This document shows positions 4,741-39,033 of a stretch of DNA of 64,000 bases, in pieces; positions within the stretch are counted from its first letter, which is position 1; every line of letters begins with the position of its first letter. The notes under the pieces are model-generated. The model saw nothing but the letters and a program-made list of their open reading frames with translations. It made no database searches and had not been told where the DNA came from. The DNA comes from an uncultured Bacillota bacterium. GTDB lineage: Bacteria > Sysuimicrobiota > Sysuimicrobiia > Sysuimicrobiales > Segetimicrobiaceae. The stretch is taken from assembly GCA_963804645.1 (NCBI GenBank), contig CAWDRG010000002.1, forward strand, positions 128,001 through 192,000. The letters are read 5' to 3'. The position numbers were made by a program, and so were the translations under genes.

Positions 4741-5913
4741 TTAGCCGACGCGATCCTCGAGCACGTCCCGGAGCACCGGGAGCCATCGCGCGCGCAGTTC
4801 CGGCGTGCTCAGGGCGAGGTGCCCCAGCGGGTGGTCGTACTCGTGGAGCTCGCTGTCGACCCCCGCGTCGCGCAGCGCCGCGTGCGCCTCGCGCGCGCCG
4901 ACGACCGGCACCAACAGATCGGACCGGCAGTGAAAGAACCGGACGCGCGCGCGGACGAGCCGGGCGGCCGCCTCGAGCGACCCGTGCCCGCGCGTCACGT
5001 CGTGCAGCGCGATTGCGCGGATGTTATAGAGGTACGCGTTCGGGTCGATCCCGCTGGCGGCGAACTCCTCGCCGCCCTGGCGCAGGGCCGCGGCACTCGC
5101 GAACCGGCCGTCGAGCACAGCGTAGGGGCTGCGCGCCGGGTCGGCCACCGCCCGGTTGAACGCGGCCGTGTACGCGTCCTGGCTCGTCGCGTACAGCCGA
5201 AGGATCATGCCCGCGATCGTCATGCCGGCGGTGGGAAACACCCCATCCTCCGCGTACCGGCCGCCCCGCCAGTTGGGGTCTGAGCGGATCGCCAGCGCCC
5301 GCGCCTCGGTGGTGGCCACCAGCAGATCGGGCGACCGGAAGTTGCCGCGGTCGATGACGATCCGGTCCGCGACGTCGGGGAGCGTCACGGCCCACTCCGC
5401 GGCCTGGAATCCACCCATCGAGACGCCGTACACCATCGCGAGGTGCCGGACCCCGAGGTGCCGGAGCAGGGCGTGGTCAGCGTGCACCATGTCGCGCAGC
5501 GTCGTGACGGGAAAGTCGAGCCCGTGCCGCGCTCCGGTGCGCGGGTCGATCTCATTGGGCCCGTCGGAGCCGTAGCTGCCGCACAGGCGGTTCGGGGCCA
5601 CGACGAAGTACCGGTCAGTGTCGAAGACCTTGCCCGGGCCGATCAGCGGGTCGAACGAGCCGGGTTCGGGATCGTCGGCGCGGTGCCGCCCCGCCGCGTG
5701 GGCGCTGCCGGTCGACCCGTGCAGCACGAGAATGGCGTTGCGGCCGTCCGGCGCCAGGCGGCCGTACGTCTCGAACGCGACGCGCAGGGACGGCAGGCGC
5801 GCCCCATTCTCGAACATCACCCCGTCCGTCGCCACCCGTGCGACTTGTGTCGTGACGATCCCGACGTTTGCGGCGTGCGGCACCTCGGATGTCCGCGGCC
5901 TCCACGAGGCCAT
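4741..5913 (-). CDS. Alpha/beta hydrolase, homoserine O-acetyltransferase (MetX)-like
   Basis: AFETYGRL...NAILVLHG, IGPGK.FDTDRYFVV, nucleophile GVSMGG, RSDLL, LGH. Confidence 0.85.
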   Translation of the reverse strand: MASWRPRTSEVPHAANVGIVTTQVARVATDGVMFENGARLPSLRVAFETYGRLAPDGRNAILVLHGSTGSAHAAGRHRADDPEPGSFDPLIGPGKVFDTDRYFVVAPNRLCGSYGSDGPNEIDPRTGARHGLDFPVTTLRDMVHADHALLRHLGVRHLAMVYGVSMGGFQAAEWAVTLPDVADRIVIDRGNFRSPDLLVATTEARALAIRSDPNWRGGRYAEDGVFPTAGMTIAGMILRLYATSQDAYTAAFNRAVADPARSPYAVLDGRFASAAALRQGGEEFAASGIDPNAYLYNIRAIALHDVTRGHGSLEAAARLVRARVRFFHCRSDLLVPVVGAREAHAALRDAGVDSELHEYDHPLGHLALSTPELRARWLPVLRDVLEDRVG

Positions 5914-27687: not shown

Positions 27688-28976
27688 GCGCGGTCCCCCC
27701 CGTCCGTCCCGCACCACGCCGCGATCGTCCGCGCGTAGACGCGCGCACACCGCACGAGGTCGTCGACCGCGACGTACTCGTCCACCGCGTGCGCCTGCCC
27801 GAGCGGCCCCGGACCGTACACGGCGGTGGGAATGCCGCGGGCGGCGATCCAGCCGGCGTCCGACACGCCTGCCGACATCCGGCGCCGGGGCGCGGCGCCC
27901 CAGACCGCGGCGTGCGCCGCGGAGAGCACCGCGACGCCGGGATGGTCGGCCGCGGTCTCGAACGCGGGAAACACCTCCCCGCGATCCTCGATCATCGAGC
28001 GGCCGCCCCACCGGAACGCCGGCGGGTTCGCGCGGAGCCACGGGTCGGCGTCGGCGGCCGCGCGGACGGTGCGCTCGATCTCCGCCGTTACCGCCTCCTG
28101 CGTCTCGCCCGGGTAGAAATGCACCGTCACCCACAGCGCGCACCGGTCGGCGACGAAAGCGGGGTGCCGTCCGCCCTCGATCGCGGCGGGATTGATCGTG
28201 GTCGTGCCCGGCTCGAATCCCGGATGCGACTTCGTGACCGCCCAATGACGCTCGAGGCGTTCCAGCACCTGCAGCACCGGTACCATCTTCTCGATCGCGC
28301 TCGCCCCGAACACACCGCCGCCCGCGTGGATCATGCGCCGGCGCTGCGCGTCGTGAAACGTGACGGGGCTCTGGATCGTGATCCACCCCGTGACCACGCC
28401 GCCCTGCCCGAGCGACACCTCCCCGGCGGTCGGCTCGGGCACGAGCGCGAACTCCGCCGCGGGCGAGTGGTCGAGCGCCGTCGGCGTGCCCGCCTCGCCC
28501 ATCTCCTCACCGGTCACCGTCTGCACGATCACGTCCCCGCGCGGACGGCCGAGGGTCCGCACGACGGCCTCCAGGGCCGAGAGCATACACGCGAGCCCGC
28601 CCTTCATGTCGGCGGCGCCGCGGCCCGACAGGCGGCCGTCCCGGACGACCGGGGCGAACGGCGGGGTCGTCCACCGCTCCGCGCCGCCCGTCGTGGCGAC
28701 GTCGACGTGGCCGTTGAGCAGCAGCGTGCGCCCGCCCCCCCGTCCCCGCAGCACCGCGACCACCTGCGGATCGCCCGGGTACAGCGCGACCGTCCGCACC
28801 TCCGCGCCGAGCGCCTCGAGCCGGGCGGCGACGAACGCTTGGACCGCCTCGGTGTTGCGTCCGGGCGGGCACGGGGTCTCGAAGCGGACGAGCGCCTCGG
28901 CGAGCTGCACGACCTCCCGTGCGCGGCCGTCGAGGTGGGCGTCGAGCGCCTGCGCGGCGACGTCGGTCCCGATCAC
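27684..28976 (-). CDS. ylmB: ArgE/DapE (M20) amidohydrolase, probable formylaminopyrimidine deformylase
   Basis: LNGHVDV, GRGAADMKGG, GEE.GE.G, AHAVDE; lies between thiY and tenA. Confidence 0.8.
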   Translation of the reverse strand: MIGTDVAAQALDAHLDGRAREVVQLAEALVRFETPCPPGRNTEAVQAFVAARLEALGAEVRTVALYPGDPQVVAVLRGRGGGRTLLLNGHVDVATTGGAERWTTPPFAPVVRDGRLSGRGAADMKGGLACMLSALEAVVRTLGRPRGDVIVQTVTGEEMGEAGTPTALDHSPAAEFALVPEPTAGEVSLGQGGVVTGWITIQSPVTFHDAQRRRMIHAGGGVFGASAIEKMVPVLQVLERLERHWAVTKSHPGFEPGTTTINPAAIEGGRHPAFVADRCALWVTVHFYPGETQEAVTAEIERTVRAAADADPWLRANPPAFRWGGRSMIEDRGEVFPAFETAADHPGVAVLSAAHAAVWGAAPRRRMSAGVSDAGWIAARGIPTAVYGPGPLGQAHAVDEYVAVDDLVRCARVYARTIAAWCGTDGGDRA

Positions 28977-29947
28977 GGCAGCAGGTTCACGTAGAGGTCG
29001 TCGACCGGGACCGGCGCGGGGATGACCTTGTGCGCGGCCATCCAGTGGTCGAACGCGGTCCACCGCGCGGCGCTCTCGGTCTGGGTGCGCGCGTACGTCG
29101 GGAGCGTCGCCAGGAACGAGGCGCGGTTGAACGCGTCGTTGAGCGACGGGTTCAGGCGCACGTACTGCTGAAACGCGTCCTGCGGGTGCGCCTCGGTGAA
29201 CGCGATCCCGCGCGCCACCGCTCCGACGAATCGCCGCAGGACGGCCGGCCGGGTCGCGATCTGACGGTCGCCCGCGATCAGGACGAGTTCATAGAACGTC
29301 GGGACCCCGTACCGCTCGGGCTCGAACATCCCGACCGCCTGTCCCTGCTGTTCGATCTGGATCCGCTCGACGTTGCGGTAGGCGCCGACCACGGCGTCGA
29401 TCTTGTGCGAGAGCAGCGCCGGCACGAGGTCGAAGCCCACGTTGATCATCGTCAGGTTCGACTCCGAGGCGCCGTCGCTGCGGACGATCTGATCCAGCAG
29501 GGCGTCCTCGTACCCGTTCACGGCAAACCCGACGCGCCGACCGACCAGATCCTTCGGCGTCCGGATCCCCGAGCTCTTGAGAAACATGATCGTCGTGAGC
29601 GGCTGCCCGATGAGCACGCCGATGCTCTTCACCGGCAGGGTCTGGGCACGCGCCATGATCACGCTCGGCTCATAGTTGACGCCGACGTCCGCGCGGCCGA
29701 CAGCGACGAGCTTCAGCGGATCGTCGGCGTTCGCGGGCACCTGGAGGTTCACGTGCAGCCCCGCCTGGGTGAAGTAGCCCAGGCCGACGGCCGCGTACAG
29801 CGGCACGTGGTCAGGGTTCGGGAACCAATCCAGCATGAACGTCACCGTATCGGGCGCCGCCGCGACGGTCGCGCCCGGCGCGCACAACAGTGCGATCGCG
29901 ACCAGCGCCCCGAGCGCCGCCCCCCACCGCCGTCTCCTCTGTCTCAT
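28973..29947 (-). CDS. thiY: HMP/FAMP ABC substrate-binding protein (NMT1/THI5 family)
   Basis: Signal peptide; MLDWFPNPDH.PLY.A...GYF, YRNVE, YGVP.FYEL. Confidence 0.85.
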   Translation of the reverse strand: MRQRRRRWGAALGALVAIALLCAPGATVAAAPDTVTFMLDWFPNPDHVPLYAAVGLGYFTQAGLHVNLQVPANADDPLKLVAVGRADVGVNYEPSVIMARAQTLPVKSIGVLIGQPLTTIMFLKSSGIRTPKDLVGRRVGFAVNGYEDALLDQIVRSDGASESNLTMINVGFDLVPALLSHKIDAVVGAYRNVERIQIEQQGQAVGMFEPERYGVPTFYELVLIAGDRQIATRPAVLRRFVGAVARGIAFTEAHPQDAFQQYVRLNPSLNDAFNRASFLATLPTYARTQTESAARWTAFDHWMAAHKVIPAPVPVDDLYVNLLP

Positions 29948-29970
29948 CCGTTCCCCCTTTGCATCTCGAT

Positions 29971-30816
29971 CTACCGGCTTCCCGGCCCGGCCGCGCGGCG
30001 CCACGGCAGCGCGAGCCACTCCGCGGCGGAAACCGCCACGAAGAGCCCGAGCGCCATCACGCTCAGGTAGACGATCGCGGCAAAGACCACATCCACGTGC
30101 AGCTGTGCGTTCGCGTGGATCATCGTGAATCCAAGCCCGCGCGCCGCGCCGACCCACTCGCCGATCACGGCGCCGATGACGCTCGTCGCGACCGCGATGC
30201 GCGTTCCGGAGAACACGAACGGGAGGGCGGCGGGAATCCGGATCTTCGTGAGGATCTGCCGGGGTCGGGCGCCGAGGATGCGCAGCAGGTTGACCATGTC
30301 GGGGTCGGCCGCGCGGAGCCCGTCCACCGTGTTGACGACGATCGGGAAGAACACGATCAGCGCCGCCATGACCACCTTCGAGGCCATGCCGTAGCCGAAC
30401 CATACGATCAGGAGCGGGGCGATCGCGAACACCGGGACCGTCTGGCTGGCGATGATCAGCGGGTAGACGGCGCGCTCCACCGTCCGCGACGAGAAGATCG
30501 CGAGCGCGAGGCCGATGCCGACGACGAAGGCCACCGCGAACCCGGCGAACACCTCCTGCAGCGTCACCCCGGCGTCCGCGAGCAGCATCGCGTGGTCCGC
30601 GATCACAACGCCGGCGATCCGGCTCGGGGCCGGCAGGATGTAGAACGGCACCCCGAACGCTCGCACCGCCCACTCCCACAGGGCGAGCACCACGAGCAGG
30701 AGCGCCGCGGGCGGCCCCGCCCGCCCGGCCCACCGCGTCCACCGGTCGGCCCAGCGGGCCGTGCCGGCGGGGCGTGGCTCGGCCGCGGGCAGCGCGTGGT
30801 GGTCGATGGTGCTCAT
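29971..30816 (-). CDS. thiX: ABC permease (ThiX/SsuC-like)
   Basis: ILPAPS, QTVP.FAIAPL...WFG, GAVIGEWVGA..GLG. Confidence 0.85.
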   Translation of the reverse strand: MSTIDHHALPAAEPRPAGTARWADRWTRWAGRAGPPAALLLVVLALWEWAVRAFGVPFYILPAPSRIAGVVIADHAMLLADAGVTLQEVFAGFAVAFVVGIGLALAIFSSRTVERAVYPLIIASQTVPVFAIAPLLIVWFGYGMASKVVMAALIVFFPIVVNTVDGLRAADPDMVNLLRILGARPRQILTKIRIPAALPFVFSGTRIAVATSVIGAVIGEWVGAARGLGFTMIHANAQLHVDVVFAAIVYLSVMALGLFVAVSAAEWLALPWRRAAGPGSR

Positions 30817-31598
30817 CGGGACGCCTCGAGTAGTTCCGGCTGCAGCCACGCGAGGATCTGCGCCTTGCGCTCGACCACGCCCGCGTCCGTCGGACGGCGC
30901 GGACGCTCGAGCGGTACCGCCAGTTCGGCGCGCACCCGCCCGGGGCGCGCGGTCATGACGTAGATGCGGTCGGACAGCAGCACGGCCTCCTCGACGTCGT
31001 GGGTGATGAACAGCACCGTGCGGCCGAACTCCTCCCGCAGCCGGAGGAGGTAGTCCTGCATCGTCGAGCGCGTCATCGCGTCGAGCGCGCCGAACGGCTC
31101 GTCGAGCACCAGCAGGTCCCGGCGGCACAGCAGCGTCCGCACCAGCGCCACGCGCTGGCGCATGCCGCCCGACAGCGTGGCGGGATACGCGCGCTCGAAC
31201 CCCTCGAGTCCGAACGTCCGCAGCCACCCGAGCGCCTCCTCGCGCGCCTCGGCGCGGTCGACTCCCTGCACCTCGAGCCCGAGCGCGGCGTTGTCGACCA
31301 CCGTGCGCCACGGCAGCAGGAGGTCCTTCTGCTGCATGTAGGCCACGCGGCTGCCGGTGGCCCCGAGCGGGGTCCCGTCGATCGTGACGGTCCCCTCGTC
31401 GGCGGGCACGAGGCCGGCGACGATGTTGCACACCGTGCTCTTCCCGCACCCGCTCGGGCCGAGCAGCGTCACGAACTCGTGCTCCTCGACGTGCAGCGAT
31501 ACGCCGGTCAGCGCGTCCACCGACGCGGCCCCCCTGCCCCGCGCGGCCGATGCGGGAAAACGCTTCGTGACCCGTTCGATCCGGAGTTTCGTGGTCAT
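30813..31598 (-). CDS. thiZ: ABC ATPase (ThiZ/SsuB-like)
   Basis: GPSGCGKS, LSGGMRQR, LDEPFGALD, ITHD. Confidence 0.87.
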   Translation of the reverse strand: MTTKLRIERVTKRFPASAARGRGAASVDALTGVSLHVEEHEFVTLLGPSGCGKSTVCNIVAGLVPADEGTVTIDGTPLGATGSRVAYMQQKDLLLPWRTVVDNAALGLEVQGVDRAEAREEALGWLRTFGLEGFERAYPATLSGGMRQRVALVRTLLCRRDLLVLDEPFGALDAMTRSTMQDYLLRLREEFGRTVLFITHDVEEAVLLSDRIYVMTARPGRVRAELAVPLERPRRPTDAGVVERKAQILAWLQPELLEASR

Positions 31599-31673
31599 CG
31601 GGCCTCCCGTGTGCCCCGCGCGCATCCGCCGCGCAACGACAACGCGCCGCTCCCGGAACCGGGGCGGCGCGCC

Positions 31674-31772
31674 TCATACTCCCTCCGCTGGCATTACCCA
31701 GATCAGGTTCCGGGGTCGATGGCAGGCAGCCATCCTCTCAGCCTGGTATACCCAAGCTCCCCCACGCTATTC
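31674..31772 (-). promoter_or_regulatory. TPP riboswitch
   Basis: Minus strand GGGGAGC...GCTGAGAGG...GACCC.GAACCTGATCTGGGTAATGCCAGCGGAGGGA; followed by a GC hairpin (31643-31671) before thiZ. Confidence 0.96.
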
Positions 31773-31788
31773 AGTTGTTGGCCCATTC

Positions 31789-31816
31789 AGTATACCACAC
31801 AGCCGTGCGCCCGCAA
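31789..31816 (-). promoter_or_regulatory. Putative thi operon promoter
   Basis: TTGCGG-16 bp-TATACT with extended -10 TG, just upstream of the aptamer. Confidence 0.55.
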
Positions 31817-32029
31817 CCGCGGCGCCGGGCCGGGCAGCGATTTCGCAAATGGACAGGGGGAAGCCAGACGCCTGCTGGTCTCGGGGCGGCATACAAGCTG
31901 TCGAACAGTCTTGCGGTAGATTCGCAGGCGGCACGAGTGCGCGAACGGGAACGGTGGGACGTGATGACGGGGGGAGGACCTGAAGAGTCCGAGTCGCGAC
32001 TCCGGACCTGGGCATCCCGGCGCTGCCGG

Positions 32030-33294
32030 TCAGCTCGAGTCGCGGGTGCACCTGGGCGAACGCTGGGACGACTTGGCGCGCAACCTGGCAGAGCGTCGGC
32101 GGCGTGTGGCGGGCGTGACTCAGCACCTGGCGATGAAAGAACACCAGCAGCAGCGTATAGGCCAGGATGCGAATCATGGTGAGCACCACGAAGGCTTGAT
32201 CGTGCTGCTGGTGCACCGCCGGATGCTTGAGCTGGCACTCTTTCGTCAGCGTCTGGAAGACTTCCGTATCAATGCGCCACCGCGAGCGCCCCAGCGCCGC
32301 GAGCCCCACTGGGGAACAGGCCAGCCGTCGAGGCTGCTGGCGTAGAGGTTCGTGCTCTCTTCCCACACCACCGTTTTGTGCCGCGTCCGGTGGCCCCCCT
32401 CGCGCTGCGACGCACACGCGCGTCTGCGCGTCCCGCCGCACCTCCTTGACGCACCGCACGGACCGGTCTCCCGCCGCCCAGTGCACGTCGGGCACATGCC
32501 AGCAGGTGCGTCGCGACGTCGAGGCGTACCGTCTCCGCCGGCGTCACCTCACTCGTCCTGCGCGCCAGTTCCGCCACCAACTCGGCCTGATTGTCCTTGA
32601 TGGTGCACACCCAATCGAGGCCGAGCGCTTCGATGCGCGTCGATGAACGGCTTGCCGAAATAGAGCGCATCCGCCACCAGGACGTCCACGAACCGCCGCC
32701 CCAACTGGCCCACGAGCTCCTCCAGCAGGGCCTGCGCACACGGCGACTTCGCCTTCGCCCGGCGCCTGAAAGCGCAAGCCCCAGCGGAATCGGAAACGGC
32801 GTGCTCACAACGGCGACCGCCACGATGCGGTGATAGTATTGGACGGCGGTCTGCTGGACGCCGTCGACCATCCGCTCCACCGTCCGCTCCAGACAGGTGT
32901 CGCAGCAGCGGACGTAGGACTGGCAAATCTCGATCCCGTCCACCGCGGCCACGATCAAGCCTTGCGCGGCATCCGTGCGCAGCACCCCATTGCGCTTCAG
33001 CCGGCGCGCCACCTCGCAGCCCAGCGTCAACACCGCCTCAGGCGCCAGGCGCTCGAGGGTGTAGCGCAGCGTGTCCTCACTGAGCGGCCCGATGCGATGG
33101 CGCAGCCCGCCGGCCCGGCACTCATACTCCAACTGATGGAAGCTCGGGATCCGCCCAACCGCGCCCCAGAACACGGCGGCGAAGACCTTCTGGCACGAGT
33201 GCTGCGGGTGCTGCCGCCCCTCCGGCAGGCGGGCCAGCAGCGCCGACCAATCGAAGATTTTCTCCAAATACGCCTCGATCTCGTGCCGCCCCAC
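32030..33294 (-). pseudogene. DDE transposase of element A, multiple frameshifts
   Basis: AAVDG..I...CCDTC...YYH, DVLVADALY, K.NQ, RSRWRIDTE.F..L pieces spread over several frames. Confidence 0.8.
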
Positions 33295-33296
33295 CG

Positions 33297-33684
33297 CTAC
33301 GGGGCCTTCCGCCGTTGCTGGCGCGCCAGGACGAGCAACTGCACGTTCGCCGTCCAGCACCTCGCGCACCGCGTCCTGAAACGCCCGCCCCGCGTCCACC
33401 CGCTGGCGGATCGCGTCGGCCCAGCCCGCAGGAATATGGATCACCCGCGGGCGCCCCGTCTACGCGCACCTGAGGTGCCAGGCCGGATGGCCCACGCCGG
33501 TCGCACAGTGGCACGTCGGTTTCCCGCACCGGACATGGCTGAGCGACAGCGACCCCGGCAACATCTCGTCGACGGTCTCCGGCAGGTGCCACTGCCGCTC
33601 GAGCCCCGCCTTCCGCTGCCGCAGCCGCGCGGCCTCCGGACCTCGCGGCGCCGTGAAATCGACTCGCAACTTCGGTTTGCTCAT
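33297..33684 (-). pseudogene. DUF6788-like small Cys/His protein of element A, frameshifted
   Basis: MLPGSL....RCGKPTCHCATGVGHP; collinear with the intact homologue at 35183-35551. Confidence 0.75.
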
Positions 33685-33920
33685 CTTGCATCCGAGTATA
33701 ATATAAGATACGTAGAATGCAAGCCCGTCCGCAAATGCAAAAATGCTCCTTCAAGGGTGCCTACCGAAAACCCCGCTGCAGCGGGGCCTAGCCGTCACTC
33801 CAGCCCGCCGTTTACGAAATCACTGCCGGGCCGCGCAGGCATTTCGGAATACGGTCTGGGTCACAAGGAGCCCAGGATCCGACGCCTCCCCGAAGGGACA
33901 GGATTGAGCAAGCGGCTGGC

Positions 33921-35186
33921 CTACGAACGTCGGTACGGGTGCTGGAGGGGCGAATTTCGGGGGGTGCAGAGAGGTTGGCGACGCTGGCGGAGGGTCGGCA
34001 GAGCAGAGCCGAGTGGCGCTATGGCTGAACCGCTGTTGGCAACGGCCGGGGATAAGCCGAGATTGATCCGCAGCGCGCGCACGAACTGAATCGCTGTCCG
34101 CACACCGTGGCTGCCGCGATGCAGATGGCGCAGCCGATACAACCGCTCGATCGTCAACGCGAGGAACAGCAGGAGCCAGTTGGCAACGATGCTCGTGGCG
34201 TGATGGTGGCAGAGGTGTTCCATCCCATGCAGCGTCTTGGCCACGTTGAAGCCTTCGTTTTCAATCGCCCACCGGCTCTTCGCCATGAGGAACAGCGCCT
34301 GGCTCGGGACCTGCGCCATCGGCCAGTCGGTGAGCCACATCGCTTCGATGACCTTGCCCGTAGGTTTCGTCTGCCGATACAGGAGCACGCGCACCCGGGC
34401 CCAGCGCAGAGTCCCCCAGGGCGCGAAGTTCTCCGCATCCCACACCTCCACGACATCGCCGCGGTAGGTGAACCGGTGCGTGGGGGCATGCCCGCATAGC
34501 GTTGTCGCGCCGCCGCGTAGAGGTTCGGCAAGTTCTTCTTAAGGCGGACCACGGCATGCAGCCCCAGATCGCCGACCGTGTGCAGGAACGGCACCTTCGC
34601 AAAGTTGCCGTCCGCCACGACGTAATCGGCGAACCGCCGGCCCAGGGCCGCGATCCCCCGCGTCAGCACACGCAGCGCCGCCGCGTACTCACTATCGCGC
34701 GGCCCGTACAGCTCCACATCGCACGGCAAGGGCAGCGTGCTGCCCACAACGCTCAGCAGCACTACGTGATGCCGGTACCCAAGAAGCGGCAGCGCTGTTT
34801 CGTGTAACCCGACGTCGTCGTCCCGTCCACGGCCAGGCCGATCCACGGCGTGCCCGCGAAGGCCTTCGTGCGCTTGGCCCACCGCAGGACGCCGGCCAGA
34901 CCGCCCGAGTGCGCCCCGGATCCATGCGGGCCGTGAAATAGGCGAGAGCGTCATTCCCAAACGCGCGGCACACCGCCAGCGCGCGCCGCGCCCGTGACCG
35001 CACCAACGCTTCCACGCCCGCGAAAGAATCTTCCCGCAGCACATGGCCGACCACCAAGCCCCACACCAATGCGCGCGCAGGAATCCGCGGGCGGAGCCGG
35101 CCATCGCCCGGCCGCTCAAAAAAGTCGCCCAAACGAAGGATATGCGTGACGTACTTCCAGAGCCGACGGGGCGTCGGCCCGCTCAC
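33921..35186 (-). pseudogene. DDE transposase of element B, frameshifted
   Basis: GYRHH.V, DSEY.AA, DYVVADG.F, V.LKKNLP.L, KSRWAIENEGFN..K; GTGA overlap with the upstream ORF; true end probably near 34026. Confidence 0.8.
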
Positions 35187-35551
35187 CGCCGCCGCTTCCG
35201 CGCCAACACGAACTGCTCCGCGTTGGCCGTGAGCACGTCGCGCACCGCCTCCTGTAGCGCTCGCCCGGCCGCGACGCGCTGCGCCACTTCTTCCGCCCAT
35301 TCCTGCGGCACGCGCTCTGTGCGCTTCCGTCCCTTCACCGTGAAGCTCAATGTCCAGGCGGGATGCCCCGGGCCTGTCGCACAATGACACCCCGGCTGTC
35401 CGCACCGCGTCTCGCTCCGTGTGAGCGACCCGGGCAACATCGCCGTCACGCTCGCTGGCAGCTGAAAGCGGCGGATCAGCGCATGGCTACGCTGCCGCAG
35501 CTTTGCGGCCTCATCTCCGGTCAGCTCGCGTGGACTCATCGCGTCTCGCAT
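35183..35551 (-). CDS. DUF6788-like small Cys/His protein of element B
   Basis: MLPGSL....RCGQPGCHCATGPGHP.W.L; basic C-terminus; translationally coupled to the transposase. Confidence 0.8.
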   Translation of the reverse strand: MRDAMSPRELTGDEAAKLRQRSHALIRRFQLPASVTAMLPGSLTRSETRCGQPGCHCATGPGHPAWTLSFTVKGRKRTERVPQEWAEEVAQRVAAGRALQEAVRDVLTANAEQFVLARKRRR

Positions 35552-35720
35552 CTTGTAGGTATACTCCTACAAGATTCCCGCAAAGTCAAGGGGTCCTTAC
35601 CAAATGCGAAAATAGAACCCCCGATGTCTCTACACCGGGGGGTGGCTCAAATCCGCTCTGAAGACGTGCGCCTTACTTATGACCCTCGACTATTCCGAAA
35701 CTACGCGGGCCGCGGTAGTG

Positions 35721-36414
35721 TCAAGAGTTATGTGTAGATTCCCTTGAGAGAGAGCGCCTCGCCTGCCGGACGTTCAGGGCATAGACGATCGCATAAATAA
35801 TCCGATCACAGCTGGCTACGTTCGTGAAGCACGTATGGGGCGCGTGCGCCGGCGGACTTCGCGAAACACGCGTTCAATCGCATTTGTGGTGCGGACCCGG
35901 CGCCAGTCCGCCTCGGCGACGGATAGAAGCTGAGCAGGGCGTCCTCCTCGCGCGTCAGACAGGCGACCGCGGCGGGGGCGGTGGCCTGCCAGGCCTGGAC
36001 CCACTGGCGCAGGAGGCGGCGCGCGGCGTGGGTGGTCGGTGCCTGATAGATCCGGCGCGCCATGCGCAAACACGCCTCCCGGTCCTTGACCCGCAGCCGA
36101 TTGGCCACGTTGCGGAGGACATGGACCCAGCACGCTTGGCGCGGGATGACCGAATAGACCAAATCGAGGGCGGCATGGAGGCCCCGATGACCGTCCGTGG
36201 TAATCAGCTGCAACTGCTTCCCCACTAACCCCCGGCAGGCCAGCGTCGTGAGAAAGGCTTCCAGGTGGCTTGGGTCTCGTAGCGAGCCAGCCGGAAATCG
36301 ATCAGGTCCCGCTGCCCGGTGGGCCGAATGCCGTAGGCCACGAGAATCAAGCGGCGCTTGCTTCCGCGAGCCCTTTCACCCGGAGGCTGACGGCGTCGAG
36401 GAACAGATATTGAT
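35721..36414 (-). pseudogene. IS256 transposase, C-terminal part
   Basis: YLFLDAV, LVAYGI, ITTDG..GL, Q.CWVH.LRN, RTTNAIER.FREVRRRT; frameshifts. Confidence 0.87.
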
Positions 36415-37013: not shown

Positions 37014-38536
37014 CCGGGATTTCCATTGTCTGTGTCTGAACACCTTGTGTTGAAGGAGTCCATCTGGCTCTTCAGGGACGAGTGTGACCGACGGCCCCAT
37101 GAAAGGCTGTTCGGGCCCGTCCGAAACCCCCAATCCCGGGCATGGTCGCGCTGGCCACCGATTTCTCAGACACGTCCCCCTCGGCCTCCTTCTCGTCCTT
37201 GTTGGCCGCGACGATCGCCGGCTGCTATCCCGCCGGCACCGACAGCGTCGTAAGCCGCTGCACGATCGCCCCGAACAGTTGCCGCGTGAGGTGCCCCTCC
37301 GCCAGCAGCAGCCAGTAGTATCGGGCGTGTTTCACGAGCCGGCCACCCGTCTTCATCAGCCGCTGCTGCAGACTCGTCAGCGACCAGCGTGTCGATCCGC
37401 TTCGGCAGCCCGAGCCGCCGCCAGAGGTTCCCCAGATTGTACGCAATGATGCTCAGCCACAACCGCACCTCATTCGCCCGGAACCGGTGGCAACTCAATC
37501 GCGTCATCTTCACTGCCTGTTTGCCCTCCTTGATCCACTGCTCCGCCGTCCCGCGTTTATTGTAGAACCGCACCACCGCCCGGCTGTCTGTCGCCAGGGT
37601 CGTCACGATGAAGCCCACTCGAGGAAACAGTTCCCCGCAGTGGAACTCGATCTTCGCCACCACGCGCCGCGCGATCTTCCAACTCGCGGCCTGGTACCGG
37701 AAGCTCGTGTACCGCACCACCGGCTTGTGACTGGGTCGCCCGACCGGCCGCGTGAGCAGCTCCGCGATGGCCCGCTCCAAGATGTCGTTGGAGGGGATGC
37801 GAATGGCGTACGTTGCGTTCCGCGTCTCCAGGGCTTCGTAGAGCTCCGGCTTGGCAAAACCGGCATCGGCCCGGACGACCACGTCCTTGCCCTGCCGCTG
37901 CTGCCGCTCGAGCTCGGGCAGCAGCACCTGGTCCCACTCCTCGGCGCTGTGGACGTTGCCCGGTCGCAGCTTTGCCGCCAGACAGTCGCCCTCCCGATTG
38001 AACAGCAGCAGCGGATGGTAGCAGGTCGACGCAAAGTGCCCGTTGTAGGCGCTCTGCTCCTGCTGGCCGTAGACAGGGATCTCGGTACTATCGAGATCGA
38101 GCACCACCCGCTGCGGGGTGTCCACGGGGTCCACCCGTGCGATCAGCTCCCGATTGATCGCGGCCAGCCCGGCGAGGTTCTCATCTTGGGTCAGCAACTC
38201 CGTCTCGAAGGAGTGCGCCCGGGACGTCAGGGCGGCCCCGCGCTCCCAGACGCTGCTCCGACCCGATCAGCCGGAAGGTCGGATCCTGGGAGAGGCGTTC
38301 AGCATCATTCACGTCCTCGTACCCCGCCAATCGGCGGTAGACCGATTGCCGGACCAGGTCGGCGAGCGGGAACTGCGTGTTCGTGCCCCGCGGATCGGTC
38401 AAGTGCTGTGCGATGAGGGTCGCTGAAGCCCAACCGCTCGTCCAGTTCGCGGACGAGGATCAGGCCGCCATCGGAGGTGACCCGCGCCCCCTGGAACTCG
38501 ATCTTCAACGCGGTGTTGAACGAGAGCTGAAAGGGC
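37014..38536 (-). mobile_element. IS1380-family element lacking its left end
   Basis: Transposase (about 37225-38536, frameshifted) with PFQLSFN..F.G.RVTSDGG, AGYEDVNDA, LDLDS, YNGH...CYHPL, RADAGF, YNKRG.AEQWIKE; probable right end CCGGGATTTCCATT at 37014. Confidence 0.85.
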
Positions 38537-39033
38537 TGATCGACTAGCGTCCGGTGGTGGAAGGCCGCTGCGGCTTGATCCAAGGTCTGGGTGATCGTCG
38601 AGACGGTCGTGGGACTGACCACGTCGTCGAGGAAATTGGCGAGGACGGGCCGACCTGGCGGGTGGAGAGGCCGCAGAGGAAGACGGCGCGGACGAGTGCG
38701 TTGACGTCACTGGTGCGGCGCTGGTAGCGGCCGAGCACCGAGGGCTGGACCCCGCTCTGGGGGCCCGGGGAATATGGAGATCGGGGATGGTGCCCCACGT
38801 CGTCACCAAACGGCGGCGGTAGACGCCATTCCGATACCCCGGCCGGTCCGGATTCCGAGTATACCGGCCAGCATTCAGATGGTTGATCAACTCGTCATGC
38901 ATCCGGTTCTCCAGCAAGAGCTTGACCGTGCCGAGCGTCTCCCGCGAGACGTCCCCCACAAGGTTCCTTCGTCCTTGACCTCTTTCCACAGATCGGTGAC
39001 CGTGAGATCGGTCAGTGGTCGCACACTGGCCAT
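38537..39033 (-). pseudogene. IS256 transposase, N-terminal part
   Basis: AAGGAGG RBS; RY.R...R.GYRNG.Y.R.L.T..G.I..L.IPR, GLSTRQV, VSPTTVS. Confidence 0.87.

Follow-up and report, generated by a model that had tools for sequence, protein, structure and literature searches.

The insertion sequences (ISs) of the IS4/Tn5 type are textbook single-gene elements. Two neighbouring ISs in an uncultured Bacillota bacterium (GTDB phylum Sysuimicrobiota) carry a second, small gene directly ahead of the transposase gene, which raises the question of what this gene does and how consistently it is kept. The two elements, A and B, lie in a 64 000 nt stretch of assembly GCA_963804645.1 (contig CAWDRG010000002.1, positions 128 001–192 000, forward strand), here called the window; positions below are window coordinates. 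The host genome is 5.3 Mb with 68.6% G+C. A and B are two diverged, decayed head-to-tail copies of one IS family, both on the minus strand. They share 15-bp CAG...TTTCG inverted ends, a small DUF6788 gene ahead of the transposase (open reading frame 1, ORF1), the transposase gene itself, a non-coding tail of about 190 nt and a target duplication of 9–10 bp. An earlier examination by a model that saw only the DNA and its translated frames (the sequence-only reading) had described this layout together with an internal motif, and all of its parts are present.

The pairing of ORF1 and transposase proves to be near-obligate in a Tn5-like family that spans several phyla. As to function, the reading favoured here is that ORF1 of this IS family is a zinc-dependent DNA-binding regulator or accessory factor acting inside its own element, which is put at about an even chance of being correct.

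Pairing of ORF1 with the transposase

Species-representative genomes yielded 331 confirmed ORF1 relatives, and the pairing figures are taken from the best 79 loci. A transposase gene lies directly downstream on the same strand in 76 of these. The misses are L118, L135 and L130, the contig of the last stopping 470 nt past ORF1. Most of the 79 loci belong to Acidobacteriota; the remainder are from Dehalococcoidia and other Chloroflexi, Eisenbacteria, Micromonosporaceae, Planctomycetota, Gemmatimonadales and a Shimia metagenome-assembled genome. Public data hold at least 1565 relatives of the transposase and at least 1055 of ORF1, often on contigs of equal size. A tblastn search of the transposase against plasmids gave no match. 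The two-gene layout, with ORF1 abutting or overlapping the transposase start, is therefore not peculiar to A and B.

Among 51 distinct junctions between the two genes, the ORF1 stop is TGA in 48 and the transposase is in the −1 frame in 47. An ATG, GTG or TTG overlaps the TGA in 37 (12, 15 and 10, respectively). The junction is GTGA in B and ATGA in a third type of the family, C. Intact A-type copies have TAG-CG-GTG or TAA-GCG-GTG, the GTG lying 2–3 nt past the ORF1 stop, in the −1 frame in copies C6 and C10 and in the same frame behind TAA in copy C17. A further eight junctions (L072, L079, L087, L088, L092, L108, L109 and L137) have CTG at the overlap position, with no ATG, GTG or TTG near the conserved transposase N-terminus. 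Some of these CTG elements are present in several identical copies per genome and hence were recently active. No slippery heptamer is conserved among the 51 junctions, and the last sense codons before the ORF1 stop vary (CAG, CGG, CGA, CGT, GGT, CCA, CCG, AAA, AGA). None of the best 150 of 619 ORF1 relatives from an all-against-all search is longer than 300 amino acids (aa). Since the overlap is mostly NTGA and both a conserved slippery site and, among those 150, relatives above 300 aa are missing, the junction points to stop–start translational coupling rather than to a frameshift fusion.

Frameshifting nevertheless has to be weighed, as other two-ORF elements use it. IS1 (InsA) and the IS3 family (OrfA, including IS911 OrfA and IS2 InsA) have a small first ORF followed by a catalytic ORF in the −1 frame. 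InsA is a zinc-finger protein and OrfA has a leucine-zipper helix; each binds the promoter or the ends of its element and reduces transposition. The reading frames of both also supply the N-terminal part of a fusion transposase made by frameshifting. The present elements resemble these in the small upstream ORF1, the −1 catalytic ORF and the proposed damping role. They differ in that DUF6788 has a different fold and in that the two proteins appear to be separate. In its account of the ISMich2 group (ISKra4/p-MULT 4), Guerillot et al. 2014 (PMC3942029) describes a conserved two-ORF layout with the second ORF in the −1 frame, encoding a Mutator-type transposase, and reads it as programmed frameshifting. 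The layout is alike here, with a Tn5-type transposase and junctions that argue for re-initiation.

By analogy with IS1, IS3 and ISMich2, ORF1 could be the front half of the transposase, joined to it by programmed −1 frameshifting, and ORF1 alone a truncated regulator. The prevalence of the −1 frame would agree with this, and the junctions that offer only CTG at the start position, multi-copy elements included, keep it alive. However, a conserved slippery site is missing, and the near-universal TGA, with its TG kept, is what an overlapping NTG start would need. The intact A-type GTG lies past the stop and in one case in the same frame; the modelled Tn5 fold already has an N-terminal helical domain of its own of about 100 residues; and in an IS1634-type element of this genome ORF1 is on the opposite strand. 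Frameshift fusion is accordingly considered very unlikely.

A Tn5-like transposase and the partners of DUF6788

Because both transposase genes in the window are broken, the proteins are best seen in intact copies. The genome contains four further A-type copies, 86–88% identical to A, and two identical C-type copies; intact relatives of B are found in genomes of the same genus (L034, L049). A-type elements are 1994 bp and C-type elements 1941 bp long. The ends of intact copies are 15 bp, CAGCGATTTCGCAAA and its inverse, and all ends begin CAG. ORF1 is 129 aa and the transposase 399–419 aa in these copies. DDE_Tnp_1 (PF01609; Pfam gathering cut-off 23 bits) is reached by the intact A-type (40.0 bits) and C-type (26.4 bits) transposases, while a broken piece from B scores 17.9 bits, under the cut-off. 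The DUF6788 profile (PF20586; cut-off 27.2 bits), to which the sequence-only reading had likened ORF1, recognizes the intact C-type and A-type proteins (54.4 and 56.4 bits), ORF1 of B (62.2 bits) and the 74 aa to which an in-frame TAG truncates ORF1 of A (34.4 bits).

An AlphaFold2 model of the transposase has a mean predicted local distance difference test score (pLDDT) of 86.5 and matches Tn5 transposase over its full length (436 columns, E 6.2e-11, TMq 0.58). In the transposase alignment D119 and D208 are invariant, and residue 341 is Asp in most sequences and Glu in the C-type, giving spacings of 88 and 132. Given the Tn5-fold match, D119, D208 and D/E341 are probably the catalytic residues. 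Judged by this model, the enzyme is a Tn5-fold DDE transposase, so that the label ‘ISAs1-like’, applied in the sequence-only reading, does not suit it. Following the first presumed catalytic Asp there is also a cluster of invariant or nearly invariant cysteines (C124, C130, C131 and C134; residues 124–134 of the C6 copy), which suggests a zinc site within the transposase itself.

The IS4 family, as defined by De Palmenaer, Siguier and Mahillon 2008 (PMC2266710), has D(60–110)D(100–150)E spacing, a Y(2)R(3)E(6)K motif, a single ORF, a duplication of about 10 bp and 5′-CA ends. The present family agrees in its Tn5 fold, its DDE spacing, its 5′-CA ends and its 9–10 bp duplication of about one helical turn. 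It departs in having two genes, as the sequence-only reading had noticed; the single ORF is a hallmark of IS4 in that definition. The YREK motif is incomplete (GRSRWRIDTEVFQTLT in the A-type and YRMAKSRWEIENQIFNVAK in the C-type): R(3)D/E is kept, with no Tyr at −3 and no Lys at +6. The ‘emerging families’ IS701, ISH3 and IS1634 of the same paper are given 4–6 bp duplications, unlike those found here. Among the NCBIfam IS4, IS701, IS1634 and IS1380 equivalog models no cut-off was reached (IS4_1 50.3 vs 115, IS701 31.0 vs 150 and IS1634 11.7 vs 100 bits). Relatives of the transposase are annotated only as ‘hypothetical protein’, ‘Transposase DDE domain’ or ‘DDE family transposase’. Since the IS4 definition applies only in part and the IS701/ISH3/IS1634 duplications do not fit, the family is, judged against that definition and the NCBIfam models, an unplaced branch of the Tn5-like group.

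ORF1 is about 125 aa long across the family. Across 44 sequences Cys55 and His63 never vary and Cys50 and Cys57 rarely do, which bears out the Cys/His cluster of the sequence-only reading as a near-invariant Cys3His. The AlphaFold2 model of B ORF1, built on a 44-row alignment, has a mean pLDDT of 92.1. It consists of a helix (13–29), a short helix, three strands (42–48, 63–72, 75–81), a loop with the Cys3His residues and a 39-residue C-terminal helix (83–121) leading to a basic tail. From this model the protein may bind zinc, bind DNA and dimerize through its long helix. A predicted complex of ORF1 and transposase, both supplied as alignments, scored 0.00 against a mark of 0.32, a result that bears neither way on binding.

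DUF6788 is not restricted to this IS type. The Pfam model has 24 matches in this genome. Across the phylum, 21 of 94 genomes are positive; the tally counts genome G025, which enters no other result given here. In this genome the matches lie in eight loci of A, B and C elements, in seven loci of a second IS4-like clade, next to an IS1380 transposase (282.8 bits vs 180; ATGA overlap) and, at three loci, beside large serine recombinases with Resolvase, Recombinase and Zn_ribbon_recom domains. In addition, a 2277-bp repeat carries ORF1 divergently from an IS1634 transposase (283 bits vs 100), which speaks against a role as a mere translational leader. Elsewhere, 23 ORFs downstream of ORF1 relatives were scanned against Pfam: 13 are DDE_Tnp_1-clan transposases (12 reach DDE_Tnp_1 or DDE_Tnp_1_4, and L030 only DUF772), one is a serine recombinase, three belong to other families (fragments of IstB_IS21 and DDE_Tnp_ISAZ013, and RibD_C) and six have no match. 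With NCBIfam models, one transposase of these relatives is ISNCY (422.6 bits vs 325) and another falls just under the IS1182 cut-off (247.3 vs 270). On Burkholderiaceae plasmids, RefSeq annotation places DUF5372, DUF6788 and ‘recombinase family protein’ genes in a row. These trios have the same small protein directly upstream of a recombinase; they differ in that the recombinase is of the serine type, an extra small gene (Y4bD/Y4pK family) precedes ORF1, and a gap of 136 nt replaces the overlap.

The second IS4-like clade is itself a two-gene IS type, in seven copies (C1:169822, C15:173385, C13:51064, C9:1176031, C13:53159, C17:397624 and C17:489800), with a DUF6788 ORF of 117–120 aa and an IS4-like transposase of about 440 aa for which no curated family gave a match (highest NCBIfam score about 30 bits). 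A T-rich ...TTTTCTTCGCAGCAGGA... lies about 100–115 nt upstream of ORF1 in both subtypes of this clade. At another locus (L057, C15:238294–242556) a 4263-bp insert, composed of a DUF6788 gene with an internal TGA and a large serine recombinase gene, interrupts one of the 2277-bp IS1634-type elements within its transposase gene, 20 codons before the YVEKRF glutamate codon. Downstream of a lone DUF6788 gene (L054, C5:309917–310195) is a decayed ORF that faintly resembles IS66 (18.9 bits vs 180).

On a tree of 38 ORF1 sequences, from which the fragments L027, L035 and L038 were dropped, the partner label changes 12 times (minimum 9) against a shuffled mean of 21.0; none of 200 shuffles gave so few. 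The serine-recombinase-linked ORF1 of the phylum (L025) groups with those of Burkholderiaceae with support of 99/99. Each ORF1 lineage thus appears to stay with its own recombinase lineage. The sequence-only reading had regarded ORF1 as a dedicated partner, either a target selector or a repressor. Dedication holds lineage by lineage; exclusivity does not, as DUF6788 is common to many element types, namely IS1380, IS1634, ISNCY, near-IS1182 and second-clade elements and large serine recombinases.

These patterns would also suit an ORF1 that acts on the transposase protein instead of on DNA, as a stoichiometric partner that folds, inhibits or escorts the enzyme. Stop–start coupling sets the order and ratio of synthesis, ORF1 subfamilies follow the recombinase lineage, and the C-terminal helix, long and exposed, offers a possible docking surface. 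However, the partners include unrelated serine recombinases and a divergently transcribed case, and a common protein–protein interface is hard to picture for partners so unrelated in mechanism. The basic tail and the sheet-plus-helix head would also be commoner in nucleic-acid binders. A purely protein-directed role is therefore judged rather unlikely.

Left-end control region and a candidate mechanism

If ORF1 acts on DNA within its own element, candidate sites should be sought at the left end, and 30 left ends were aligned. From the tip inwards they consist of CAGnnGTTTCGGAA, a variable stretch of about 75 nt, the near-invariant CTATTTTCGCATTCG, a −35-like hexamer containing TTG, about 17 nt, and a TATAAT-like hexamer enclosed in the palindrome CTTGTAGTA-TAAT-TACTACAAG, with the ORF1 ATG immediately after. 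The two sides of the palindrome covary. Across the 30 elements 83.3% of pairs are standard, against 69.8% in shuffles (0 of 500 as high); cells with double changes number 41 against 14.3 in shuffles, and both sides change in six of the ten pairs. Slid controls of the palindrome give 30–51% pairing. Such a covarying palindrome would fit an operator for a dimer. Because the ORF1 ATG is so close to the −10-like hexamer and palindrome, the orf1–tnp mRNA is probably leaderless or near-leaderless.

The 9-mer CTATTTTCG begins 79–93 nt from the left tip in 28 of the 30 ends, the other two being A-type rows with a variant. In the window, CAAATGCRAAA is found at 33732 and 35601 (two matches vs 0.01 expected). 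Inverted, CTATTTTCG ends 79–92 nt from the right tip (90–92 in 13) in 14 of 35 tails, so that some family members have it as a subterminal inverted repeat. The 9-mer was also considered as a general DUF6788 site and rejected; its occurrences in this genome are limited to the vicinity of B- and C-type copies. A terminator-like hairpin ahead of the motif is seen in B, the C-type and L060; as a family-wide feature it was rejected, since only 3 of 28 left ends fold better than shuffles at z < −2 (median z −0.2).

The 3′ tails are about 190–200 nt long in A and B and 176–224 nt in 38 of 40 tails measured across the family. Apart from the terminal repeat and, in a subset of tails, the inverted motif, the tail alignment shows no conservation, and an Rfam scan of 31500–36000 found no family in the tails of A or B. 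The sequence-only reading had proposed a conserved non-coding architecture; family-wide this applies to the left end and to tail length, and not to the remaining tail sequence.

A mechanism consistent with this anatomy can be proposed. Transposition would probably be cut-and-paste, by analogy with Tn5, with a 9–10 bp target duplication. ORF1 would be translated first, from the ATG directly after the promoter-embedded palindrome, and the transposase would be made by re-initiation at the NTG overlapping the ORF1 TGA. A zinc-dependent ORF1 dimer may then bind the candidate sites, namely the −10/ATG palindrome and/or the CTATTTTCGCATTCG motif about 91 bp inside the ends. Binding would hold down expression of the orf1–tnp operon and possibly promote assembly of the transposition complex or keep it in check. 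Other DDE families and large serine recombinases have acquired proteins of this kind as well, and each subfamily appears to keep its partner.

The left ends of IS10 and IS50 offer a related arrangement, fold-back inhibition, in which an inverted repeat pairs only in transcripts from outside and covers the start of the first gene. The repeat described here also encloses a −10-like hexamer and could equally be a palindromic operator.

Several points weigh against ORF1 as a DNA-binding regulator. The palindrome fits equally well an RNA or single-strand hairpin that would act without any protein, by masking the start codon of read-through transcripts. Transposase, RNA polymerase (with the motif as an UP-like element) or a host factor could bind the near-invariant motif; the other DUF6788 types of this genome do not have it nearby, and its right-end copy is confined to 14 of 35 tails. 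A sigma-70 consensus scan of 31700–35800 returned 0 promoters, so that a promoter here is argued from the family consensus alone, and the leaderless start is likewise a prediction from sequence. The clustering on the ORF1 tree overstates independence because relatives share labels. Foldseek found no PDB match to the ORF1 model at E ≤ 0.001, the weak top rows (E 0.24) being integrase arm-binding domains; a wide structural search gave a best Z of 4.6, to the long helix alone. A protein atlas search (best score 0.88, to unnamed clusters) gave no lead.

The absence of a recognizable DNA-binding fold in the PDB searches, together with portability across recombinase classes, could also mean that ORF1 is a passenger that aids the element indirectly, for example through a host process, outside the chemistry and control of transposition. 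Its position upstream of the recombinase and overlapping its start is conserved across phyla, however, and it co-clusters with partner type, unlike cargo genes, which come and go. A passenger role is regarded as highly improbable, and a regulator or accessory factor acting inside the element is the reading retained.

Target sites, the A/B locus and wider meaning

The features of the two elements are collected in Table 1.

Table 1. Features of elements A and B and of their shared target site (window coordinates)
Feature	Position	Strand	Basis or remark
Shared 10-bp target, copy 1, CCGGGCCGGG	31825..31834	.	Flanks right end of A; 1/10 differs from 33826–33835
Element A, decayed A-type IS	31835..33825	-	1991 bp; ends set by alignment of 5 copies
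Right inverted repeat of A; plus strand CAGCGATTTCGCAAA	31835..31849	-	Copy alignment and terminus count
Non-coding 3′ tail of A	31850..32042	-	Last transposase match stops at 32043
Transposase pseudogene of A, frameshifted	32043..33294	-	tblastn with intact C6 copy: frames −2 and −3
ORF1 (DUF6788) of A, broken	33300..33684	-	In-frame TAG 33460–33462; frameshift near 33370
Subterminal motif of A, variant; minus strand GCATTTTTGCATTTG	33732..33746	-	Motif scan and left-end alignment
Left inverted repeat of A; minus strand CAGTGATTTCGTAAA	33811..33825	-	Copy alignment and terminus count
Shared 10-bp target, copy 2, CCGGGCCGCG	33826..33835	.	Sole DNA separating A from B
Element B, decayed B-type IS	33836..35703	-	About 1868 bp
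Right inverted repeat of B; plus strand CAGGCATTTCGGAAT	33836..33850	-	Terminus count
Non-coding 3′ tail of B	33851..34028	-	Last transposase match stops at 34029
Transposase pseudogene of B	34029..35186	-	GTG start overlaps ORF1 stop as GTGA
ORF1 of B, intact, 122 aa	35183..35551	-	DUF6788 62.2 bits; Cys50, Cys55, Cys57, His63
Palindrome CTTGTAGGA-GTAT-ACCTACAAG of B	35552..35573	-	Abuts ORF1 ATG; encloses −10-like hexamer
−35-like hexamer TTGACT of B	35584..35589	-	Conserved TTG column in left-end alignment; putative function
Subterminal motif of B, CTATTTTCGCATTTGG	35600..35615	-	Motif scan and left-end alignment
GC-rich terminator-like hairpin, then T-run, of B	35618..35641	-	B/C subclade only
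Left inverted repeat of B, tip degenerate	35689..35703	-	Sequence read
Shared 10-bp target, copy 3, GCGGGCCGCG	35704..35713	.	Sequence read

Three of the four element tips are exact, the terminus CAGNNNTTTCG being present at 31835(+), 33825(−) and 33836(+); the left tip of B (about 35689–35703) reads ...ATTCCGAAACTAC instead of the expected ...ATTCCGAAATGCCTG. Over the whole window the terminus pattern has five occurrences where 1.33 are expected, a number that none of 100 shuffles attained. The transposase of A has low identity to its intact relative and is spread over at least two frames (tblastn and three-frame read). That of B matches its intact relative in four pieces and three frames by tblastn, which implies at least three frameshifts.

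Read along the plus strand, the locus consists of CCGGGCCGGG, A, CCGGGCCGCG, B and GCGGGCCGCG, the three 10-mers being near-identical. This arrangement indicates that one element inserted into the target duplication of the other and duplicated it again. The four other A-type copies have 10-bp duplications (TTGGATCAGT, CTCCCGCGGG, GCCGCTGGCC and TACCGAAACC) and two C-type copies have duplications of 9–10 bp; CCGCCGCCG and GCGGTGCCA complete the list for the other copies. The duplications of seven insertions in this genome are unrelated in sequence, so the site shared by A and B does not reflect sequence-specific targeting.

Head-to-tail pairs are also found in three other genomes, at 3 of 47 loci with full flanks (not de-duplicated). 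In L111 the 9-bp spacer is identical to the other flank of the second element (locus positions 5208–5218). The L084 pair has a 9-bp spacer (about 5200–5230) that differs from the outer flanks, and the L070 pair a 17-nt spacer (5221–5240). The downstream element is A-like in the latter two, as it is in the window. The shared site is most simply explained if one element inserted next to the end of a relative already in place. The insertion site common to A and B, on which the sequence-only reading had based a candidate targeting system, is real, in three copies of the 10-mer, while the unrelated duplications leave a sequence-specific system unsupported.

A selector role for ORF1 could still take another form. 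ORF1 might guide the element to a given sequence or to where a resident relative ends, for instance by contact of its long helix with ORF1 already bound at that end. The use of one 10-bp target by both A and B, the pairs in L111, L084 and L070, and the subterminal site at both ends in part of the family would agree with this. Yet the duplications of the other copies share no sequence, most copies are solitary, and the L084 spacer is unlike its outer flanks. Four pairs are few, and pairs of like elements could come from recombination; moreover, nothing links target choice to ORF1 rather than to the transposase. ORF1 as target selector is therefore held to be unlikely.

A more far-reaching version unites these elements. 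DUF6788 would be a portable zinc-dependent DNA-binding module that mobile elements with Tn5-like, IS1380, IS1634 and IS5-like DDE enzymes, as well as those with large serine recombinases, have adopted and kept. In the present elements it would occupy a fixed site about 91 bp in from each end and shut down a leaderless orf1–tnp operon, and its long helix would tether an incoming complex to a resident end, so that kin land on the resident's duplication and build head-to-tail arrays. Taken as a whole this is a speculative proposal with only a slim chance of being right. If true, tethering to resident ends would be a homing rule opposite to target immunity.

The region around A and B is an IS graveyard. 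Beyond B are transposase remains at 35806–36225, 37166–38197 and 38399–38989, all on the minus strand; one is an IS1380-family gene (242.9 bits vs 180), and the other two are IS256-family fragments that score 77.3 and 24.2 bits, under the cut-off. On the other side, a thiamine pyrophosphate (TPP) riboswitch at 31663–31773 (−) is the sole Rfam match in 31500–36000 (54.5 bits vs a gathering score of 54.3). It lies outside the elements, separated from the right end of A by 61 nt (31774–31834), and upstream of a same-strand NitT/TauT-type ATP-binding cassette transporter operon that comprises an ATPase (30813–31625), a permease and a binding protein (28973–30742). The IS pair occupies the expected position of the promoter of this operon.

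Literature searches found no paper naming DUF6788, PF20586 or DUF5372, and searches on two-ORF IS4-like elements or on small zinc proteins with serine recombinases returned nothing relevant. As far as these searches reach, the two-gene Tn5-like family and the role of DUF6788 appear to be undescribed in print. A large, multi-phylum IS lineage carries a second, tightly coupled gene from a family without known function. As DUF6788 also rides with at least five other recombinase lineages, it is probably a general solution to a shared problem, either self-restraint or assembly at the ends. The conserved left end offers testable candidate sites in the start-codon palindrome and the near-invariant 15-mer. 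The compact control region appears to need no ribosome-binding site, which may explain how it functions in very different hosts. The entire unit could be used in Tn5-like tools as a small control cassette that does not depend on the host.

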